Assembly: GCA_044892525.1 (NCBI GenBank)
Contig: CM097885.1
Span: forward strand, 31,374,001-31,438,000
Reading direction: 5' to 3'
Source of the DNA: Schmidtea polychroa
Lineage: Eukaryota
DNA: 64,000 nucleotides
Below, one piece after another: positions 42,235 to 42,776 of the stretch (position 1 is its first letter; every line of letters begins with the position of its first letter). The notes beneath the pieces were generated by a model. The model did no database searches. It was not told where the DNA came from and saw only the letters and a list, made by a program, of their open reading frames with translations. The position numbers and the translations under genes are program-made.

Positions 42235-42776
42235 AACCCCAGTGGCGGTCAGGATGAAGAACAAAGATCCGATCTATGTTGATTATGATGTTTTTCTCTT
42301 CTTTCGACAAACATTAGTAAAGTGTACAGCTGAATCCTTGTGTCATAACGTTGAAATTAATAAATCTTGTTGTCTTACACGTTTTCGTTCATGAATAATT
42401 AGACTTTAATTAAGTGGGTTGAGTAGAGAACCCGCAAGATCTAGTGAGTAATTCCCAATTTGCGTTCAGCGAATCCCGATAAGCGGTTGTGTAAGGAAAT
42501 GGACGTAAGCCCTTCTATCGGCAGTCGTGAATGGGAAGTCGAGGCCTCAGCAAGGAGTAGTTTTAAGGCAGAAGCTCACCTGCTTGCTGGCGTCTCGCCT
42601 GCATAGTGCAGTACCAACGTGAAGTGATTCACGGGCACTATGTTGGAAGAAAGTTATGTGGGGTTTCACTCCAGGTTGACAAATCGGTGGCACCTTTTAT
42701 TCGAGATGGACAATCAACCCTTAGACCCGTCAACATGGCAGAGTGGTCAGCCGAGGTGTAACCCCAACATGATTTT

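Follow-up and report, generated by a model that had tools for sequence, protein, structure and literature searches.

The 3′ ends of two LTRs in the Schmidtea polychroa genome raise the question of what kind of RNA they encode and what that RNA does next to a primer-binding site (PBS). Reading a 64,000-nt stretch of contig CM097885.1 (positions 31,374,001 to 31,438,000; hereinafter designated the window) by its letters, a first-pass annotation had proposed that a cis-acting RNA of several domains lies directly 5′ of the PBS, with packaging, dimerization, initiation of reverse transcription or catalysis as candidate functions. Covariation across many families of the 781-Mb, AT-rich genome scanned here supports the RNA itself, and a helix predicted to close against the PBS lends support to initiation of reverse transcription.

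Results

A Burro-type giant element and a second clade of LTRs

The first of the two LTRs is the 5′ LTR (38902..42769, plus strand, 3868 bp) of a giant Ty3/gypsy element, the 3′ LTR of which lies just beyond the window (locus L031:818-4685) and is 100% identical to it. The LTRs have 7-bp inverted ends and a 4-bp target duplication and stand ~25.9 kb apart; the multi-kilobase LTRs, the total length of ~30 kb and the many copies are as in Burro elements. A single frame of 4732 codons (45584..59782, plus strand) encodes Gag, zinc knuckles, a mononegavirus-type fusion protein, protease, RT, RNase H, integrase and ankyrin repeats, with the domain content and order given for Burro in PMC6431247, and the element also carries RING and MATH/TRAF frames. 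The available part of that source presents Burro / GYPSM1 as giant gypsy-like LTR retrotransposons of planarians, ~30 kb long and with one giant frame, which share with the window element the zinc knuckles, a fusion protein preceding PR-RT-RH-IN, and the ankyrin, RING and MATH/TRAF domains; unlike in Burro/GYPSM1 as described there, MATH/TRAF in the window element is a separate frame downstream of the polyprotein. By architecture (Gag, in-frame fusion protein, PR-RT-RH-IN and ankyrin repeats), the window element is a Burro-type Ty3/gypsy element; the named references Burro-1 to Burro-4 are absent among the 120 protein matches listed, and the assignment is one of architecture.

Downstream of the 5′ LTR lies an 18-nt PBS (42777..42794, plus strand) for host tRNA-Pro, matching the 3′ ends of tRNA-Pro genes of the same genome plus CCA. 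LTR end and PBS are separated by a 7-nt spacer (42770..42776, plus strand), which measures 8 nt in the other, solo clade. A T immediately precedes the PBS at all but 5 of ~690 sites. The gap of 7-8 nt implies a long overhang for integrase trimming, the usual trimmed overhang in retroviruses being 2 nt. The U3 start with its preceding bases (38902-38915; L031:812-830) resembles the spacer and PBS region in sequence.

The second LTR is a solo LTR (20749..26230, plus strand) of another Burro clade; it sits in an ATT microsatellite and has a duplicate at 27269..32674 on the same strand. The two copies align over 2657 bp at 99.96% identity and reflect one tandem duplication, so they do not count as independent insertions. 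The duplicated unit of ~6.5 kb (window 19700-32700) comprises the solo LTR and long ATT/TA runs and is perhaps recent or an assembly artefact. LTR ends at 38705 and 23571 were considered and rejected in favour of 38902 and 20749. Full elements of the solo clade occur elsewhere in the genome with the same domains as the giant element, to which they are 91% identical in RT, 81% in integrase, 70% in the fusion protein and 46% in Gag; across Burro clades, RT identity is 91-98%. The two LTRs had been taken for divergent families. They indeed give no blastn match to each other at E<=0.1, but the two families are closer relatives than this suggests.

Both LTRs contain frames of their own (window 39753-40085 and 41446-42234; solo LTR 25347-25880), none with a convincing Pfam match and one of them 31% identical between the two clades; contigs from a presumed RNA run cover LTR frames and skip two intron-like stretches. 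On the minus strand lies a small, ordinary gypsy element (window 2523-7505, ~280-bp repeats), in which the module has no match.

Three covarying domains in the sense strand

The module consists of three consecutive domains on the plus strand (hereinafter designated P1, P2 and P3). P1 (42502..42526) is a short stem with an internal loop and a hairpin whose loop contains the conserved TTCTA (42513-42517); P2 (42543..42594) is a long stem with a conserved CAC bulge (42577-42579) and a variable apical loop; and P3 (42602..42642) combines an 8-bp stem, an 8-nt internal loop (42610-42617) opposite G42634 and a 6-bp upper stem. In the solo LTR the corresponding plus-strand positions are 26027-26049, 26063-26112 and 26119-26159, and the tandem duplicate carries P3 at 32563-32603. 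The letters and positions of P3 in all three places had been read correctly, and both folds, with z-scores (-1.87 and -2.65) that are modest alone, predict what had been reported alongside it: a small hairpin upstream, a long stem in the middle and pairing at the LTR end.

Stretches gathered via the motifs yield 114 distinct P1-P3 sequences in 48 clusters at 88% identity. After two clusters (both from L068, judged chance matches) had been dropped, one natural copy per cluster was aligned with MAFFT, blind to structure, giving 46 rows, all from one genome. RNAalifold recovers P2 and P3 unaided from this alignment, with double changes in 25/26 pairs, and does not predict P1. In a 35-pair model, 87.0% of 1598 cells in the 46 copies are paired (slid controls 36-38%) and double changes occur in 372 cells, at 31 of the 35 pairs (slid controls 64-94 cells; 0/500 shuffles). 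All 16 pairs of P2 considered, changes on both sides are seen in 13; in P3 they are seen in 14/14. P1, with 5 pairs, has 85% and 97% of cells paired and few double changes. When 10,585 column pairs are ranked by corrected mutual information, the first 4 all belong to the model, with clade-level noise from rank 5 on, and at least four pairing-keeping double changes are found in 10/35 model pairs vs 0.44% of the 10,431 remaining column pairs. Covariation reveals no further helix and, within P1-P3, no pseudoknot, giving isolated pairs only, and a pseudoknot there was rejected as a candidate.

Shared ancestry among the copies was limited by comparing disjoint pairs of close copies. Pairing is kept in 52/72 double changes over 52 such pairs, against a permuted mean of 6/34 (0/2000 permutations), and in 81/108 and 153/193 double changes over disjoint pairs in wider distance bands; as the copies are related and come from one genome, p-values overstate independence. 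G-U cells outnumber A-C cells by 373 to 64, which identifies the sense RNA as the folding strand. Covariation over more families, the check on which the compensatory changes noted between two LTRs could have failed, thus returns a strong double-change signal that supports P2 and P3 strongly and P1 moderately.

To avoid bias from the motifs, a set of LTR ends was also picked by PBS alone (689 PBS matches, 55 loci examined, 51 distinct ends). P1-P3 are present in 47 of the 51 ends; the other four (L063, L066, L156 and L161) look truncated, decayed or unrelated and were left out of the loop counts. The P1-P3 fold is under selection, on the sense strand, in nearly all PBS-bearing LTR ends of the genome. 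Exact matches to the P3 pattern number 2549 genome-wide (reversed control 0), the P1-P2 pattern has 3 matches in the window vs 0.05 expected, and a pattern avoiding the commonest families adds 79 places, many from distant families.

Against these variable stems the loops stand nearly still. Among the 47 PBS-anchored ends, positions 1 and 5-8 of the P3 internal loop are fixed in 47/47 and position 2 in 46/47, while positions 3-4 vary, so that the loop described as invariant is largely, not wholly, so. Its CCAA is kept in 47/47 ends, CTCAC of P2 in 47/47 and TTCTA of the P1 loop in 44/47. The long stem had been described as enclosing TTAAGG..GCTCAC; CTCAC holds, but TTAAGG lies in the variable apical loop of P2 and is not conserved. 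A 5′-splice-site-like GTAAG occurs in P1 of several clades (window 42505-42510) and is absent from the solo clade.

A likely poly(A) signal, AATAAA (42359..42364, plus strand), would put the module in U5. Among 42 family representatives, AATAAA lies 100-200 nt 5′ of the P1 loop in 18, compared with 4-7 in other 100-nt bins, and this clustering makes a U5 location likely.

Searches outside this genome gave no relative of the module. The Rfam check suggested at first pass, run on the whole window at the gathering threshold, matched no family, and at E<=10 on four stretches it returned chance-level matches only (best E 0.094, 20 bits vs a cut-off of 45). A covariance model of the module detected no homologue in 85 generic gypsy loci from metagenome and viral contigs (best E 0.097) and nothing in 80 of 120 loose-pattern viral matches; the tight module pattern had 0 viral matches, and an RT-based viral scan confirmed none. 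Eighteen metagenomic polyproteins (P0087-P0093, P0095, P0097-P0100, P0105, P0106, P0108, P0111, P0113, P0114) combine an RT 46-59% identical with the same fusion domain, indicating that Burro-like architecture occurs in other samples.

A fourth helix predicted to close on the spacer

P3 is followed by a fourth domain, P4 (42650..42776, plus strand; solo LTR core 26180-26227), whose interior is clade-specific and whose basal helix, as predicted by folding, pairs 42650-42659 with 42767-42776 and so extends up to the base adjoining the PBS. The predicted partners of the U5 arm are the terminal CA of the LTR and the spacer outside it. The pairing of U5 with the LTR end that had been noticed at first pass is thus predicted too, except that the helix continues past the LTR end into the spacer. 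A U5 helix that adjoins the PBS and overlaps the LTR end is what defines stems of the U5-IR/U5-leader type, and P4 is predicted to have this arrangement.

In folds of 41 distinct Pro-clade ends the spacer is paired in 40, and the U5 arm fits the spacer of its own clade better than that of the other clade in 38/41. Its mean pairing energy with its own spacer is -5.0 kcal/mol vs -3.0 kcal/mol for 54 host flanks (p = 9e-7, a value overstated as the copies are related). Since the spacer lies outside the LTR, the helix would be completed only on RNA from the 5′ LTR, where it is predicted to cover the first bases that RT must copy. The integrase attachment sequence, whose conservation has a cause of its own, forms part of both ends of the helix. 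Within P4 of the solo clade, an inner hairpin carries a GNRA loop in 37/37 matched segments (42 segments, 5 of which did not match the tetraloop pattern).

A tRNA-Trp-primed sister clade and an unusual 3′ junction

A search with the fusion domain uncovered a compact sister gypsy clade with an in-frame fusion protein, ~1-kb LTRs, an RT 51% identical and a PBS for tRNA-Trp (loci L470:6779-7863, L471, L512 and L513). Among 16 LTR ends examined from two families, the helix formed by U5, LTR end and spacer is kept in all 15 with a PBS, and the module model has no match at the LTR ends of this clade (P1-P3 absent). No P1-P3-bearing family with another primer was found; the search gave only the Trp clade. 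A U5 word present in both Trp-clade families could pair just 3′ of the PBS. The tRNA-Trp genes of the genome form a tandem array with 284-bp spacing (G000:C4:55022433 onward; 821 pattern matches genome-wide), and tRNA-Pro genes are likewise arrayed.

The two clades also differ at the 3′ junction. Trp-clade elements have a U-tract and a polypurine tract before the 3′ LTR at 2/2 junctions, both with 12 purines among 15 nt, whereas no polypurine tract adjoins the Burro 3′ LTR at any of 17 distinct junctions, the last 15 nt containing 5-8 purines. Burro elements instead carry a conserved element of ~45 nt (L031:770-817, before the 3′ LTR; also L215, L495, L498 and L500) made up of a small hairpin, a U-tract and then a G/C motif. 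The motif is predicted to pair, using G-U wobbles, with spacer and PBS in the register of the primer. Ranked for such pairing, it comes first of 12,914 and first of 8,472 windows in two elements; in a third clade it is the third site among 7,384 windows and so not the best there. Alternatively it can pair with the loop of the neighbouring hairpin, possibly as a compact pseudoknot. Priming of the plus strand by tRNA-Pro at this motif was considered and rejected, as the motif differs from the tRNA by changes that give G-U pairs with PBS RNA and mismatches with minus-strand DNA.

Judged from these sequences, the boundary helix would be the older trait, and the gain of P1-P3 and the loss of the tract appear to go together in the Pro-primed giants, a single contrast.

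Discussion

A candidate platform for initiation of reverse transcription

Among the functions proposed at first pass, initiation of reverse transcription gains support, because P4 is predicted to pair with a spacer unique to the 5′ LTR and a sister clade with another primer keeps the helix; dimerization through TTAAGG gains none, a self-complementary 6-mer being found in 5/68 P2 apical segments and not conserved, so that a kissing loop at the P2 apex was rejected. For the last 270 bases of the Burro LTR as a whole, we regard a platform that initiates reverse transcription from the tRNA-Pro primer as an even bet. Its parts differ in strength: P4 probably organizes the template at the PBS, and that P1-P3 present contacts for primer or RT is a tentative proposal, somewhat short of even. 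The four-helix fold of the sense RNA would place tRNA-Pro and start minus-strand synthesis. Closing the P4 basal helix against the PBS would take genome-length RNA from the 5′ LTR, and P1-P3 would keep three G-poor motifs, short and unpaired, in a fixed arrangement, where they may touch the primer or RT/Gag. P1-P3 are not generally needed, given that the Trp clade starts reverse transcription without them, and MLV, which is also primed by tRNA-Pro, is reported in the accessible text of PMC3185550 to need no extra contacts.

Candidate partners of the fixed loops can be named. For CCAA these are the UUGG of the spacer/PBS junction, the tRNA-Pro anticodon loop and, if one bulge is allowed, the D arm of the tRNA. 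Near the module, TTGG keeps a fixed position at the spacer/PBS junction alone (44/47 ends, the other 3 having been picked for lacking TTGG), and CCA is a proline codon, the primer being tRNA-Pro. Most simply, CCAA would pair with UUGG, either at the junction before annealing or in the anticodon loop; the P1 loop, which in all its variants can pair with the tRNA D loop, might do so once that loop is freed. For each candidate target, 10-37% of random 8-mers equal the two commonest P3 loops in pairing (5-17% in a separate comparison), and 53-83% of random words pair with the tRNA as well as the P1 loop does. Loop pairing is not above that of random words, and the partners are accordingly candidates. 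At the other end of the RNA, the 3′ motif, in the position of a polypurine tract, may pair with spacer and PBS and join the RNA ends until the tRNA displaces it.

A bolder reading, in which both priming steps of Burro have come to depend on RNA structure, seems to us unlikely. A newly gained U5 scaffold of three domains would grip tRNA-Pro outside the PBS, the CCA-A bulge contacting the anticodon loop in a T-box-like manner and the second loop the D loop, and a mimic of the tRNA 3′ end would replace the polypurine tract and hold the 26-kb genome folded back on its PBS until displaced by the tRNA. The two traits at issue, P1-P3 and the motif in place of a polypurine tract, co-occur in the Pro-primed giants, and the Trp-primed sister clade has neither.

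Alternative roles for P1-P3

Evidence that P4 concerns reverse transcription need not extend to P1-P3, which might instead be a packaging and/or dimerization signal recognized by Gag. We consider this possible but improbable. Lying downstream of the likely poly(A) site, P1-P3 would mark genome-length RNA as opposed to short LTR-encoded mRNAs, and such a mark would be useful to an LTR that encodes its own frames; the location in U5, the presence in 47/51 PBS-bearing ends and the loops without a significant RNA partner fit as well. Sites for zinc-knuckle NC are usually unpaired G, however, and the fixed loops are G-poor; P2 has no conserved self-complementary apical loop for dimerization, and Gag is only 46% identical between clades whose loops stay fixed. 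The Gag of Ty1 does bind 5′ structures, according to the available text of PMC4974528.

Fixed internal loops on variable stems would also suit a conserved host factor acting in nuclear export, in translation of downstream frames or in control of the upstream poly(A) site, in analogy to the CTE or RU5 post-transcriptional elements of retroviruses; we hold this to be less probable again. Genome-length RNA has the LTR frames upstream of the module, and its first post-PBS frame begins at 43112, so that plain scanning would be blocked. Contigs of the presumed RNA run cover the module, a weak observation as start, end and strand are not readable from them. The closure of P4 on the spacer points to the primer site rather than to such a factor, and the splice-site-like word in P1, kept in some clades, is missing from the solo clade.

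It is very improbable that the module belongs to a new class of catalytic RNAs, self-cleaving or other, and processes an end of the element RNA. Adjacent helices, fixed internal loops and a GNRA loop suggest tertiary docking, and the missing polypurine tract calls for unusual formation of a primer end, but Rfam gives no ribozyme match even at E<=10, P1-P3 show no pseudoknot covariation, cleavage within the U5 of the 5′ LTR would detach R from the PBS, and the PBS matches a host tRNA over all of its 18 nt. The catalysis proposed at first pass thus finds support in neither Rfam nor a pseudoknot signal. An epsilon-like bulge for protein priming was likewise rejected, on account of the same tRNA match.

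Conservation through signals in the DNA (words of a promoter or terminator, or the integrase attachment site) or through common descent alone, for which the 91-98% RT identity between clades and the 7-bp terminal inverted repeats might be cited, is hardly credible and, for P2 and P3, largely refuted, since double changes keep pairing far above controls in close pairs, the excess of G-U over A-C singles out sense RNA, and flanking LTR sequence is unalignable.

Comparison with known leaders

The proposed platform for tRNA-Pro has partial counterparts elsewhere. In the avian U5-IR, a U5 helix at the PBS is tied to the initiation of reverse transcription. As in retroviral U5-IR/U5-leader stems and the Tf1 ‘pretzel’, a structure of three duplexes (PMC10085805, in the part available), the predicted U5 helix of Burro abuts the PBS and overlaps the LTR end; unlike in those systems, its partner is a spacer of 7-8 nt outside the LTR, and three more covarying domains lie upstream of it. 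Burro is primed by a host tRNA, whereas Tf1 uses the 5′ end of its own RNA (PMC10085805).

Contacts of a primer outside the PBS are described, in the accessible texts, for tRNA-Lys3 with the A-rich loop and PAS of HIV-1 (PMC11251516, PMC3185550) and for the avian U5-TPsiC contact (PMC3185550). The unpaired U5 motifs of Burro could likewise pair with their primer outside the PBS, at its anticodon or D loop, though such pairing is possible rather than significant. Ends of the genomic RNA pair near the primer site in Ty1, through CYC5/CYC3, and in Ty3, with its bipartite PBS (PMC4974528, as far as its available text goes), and the same is predicted for Burro. Unlike in Ty1/Ty3, however, the predicted target of the Burro 3′ partner is the PBS itself, paired in the register of the primer, and this partner occupies the position of the sister clade's polypurine tract.

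P3 resembles the specifier loop of a T-box in being an internal loop with a cognate codon plus purine, CCA-A (PMC11404447). In the T-box, AGUA and codon lie on opposite strands, with GAA as partner of the former, according to the part of that source available, whereas in Burro they would lie on the same strand, opposite a single G. The geometry differs and Rfam gives no match, and identity with a T-box riboswitch (S-turn AGUA/GAA, AG bulge, antiterminator) was ruled out.

Significance

The structured RNA is real and apparently undescribed: a retroelement leader signal with an unusual 3′ counterpart, whose function we infer. Our literature search on Burro and on covarying LTR/U5 structures did not find this RNA, and supplements of the primary Burro papers may describe LTR features; the available text of PMC6431247 covers Burro proteins and is silent on the structure of LTR RNA, on the spacer and on plus-strand priming. 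Detailed knowledge of structured leaders is confined to a few retroviruses and yeast elements, and a multi-domain leader supported by covariation in an animal Ty3/gypsy group lies outside Rfam. Dozens of natural variants within one genome make it a ready model for probing, and a missing polypurine tract beside a tract-bearing sister clade renders the question of plus-strand priming directly testable. Burro elements are abundant and expressed in planarians and are reported, in the accessible parts of PMC8532177 and PMC13465017, to aid stem-cell survival; their cis-signals therefore bear on a much-studied element.
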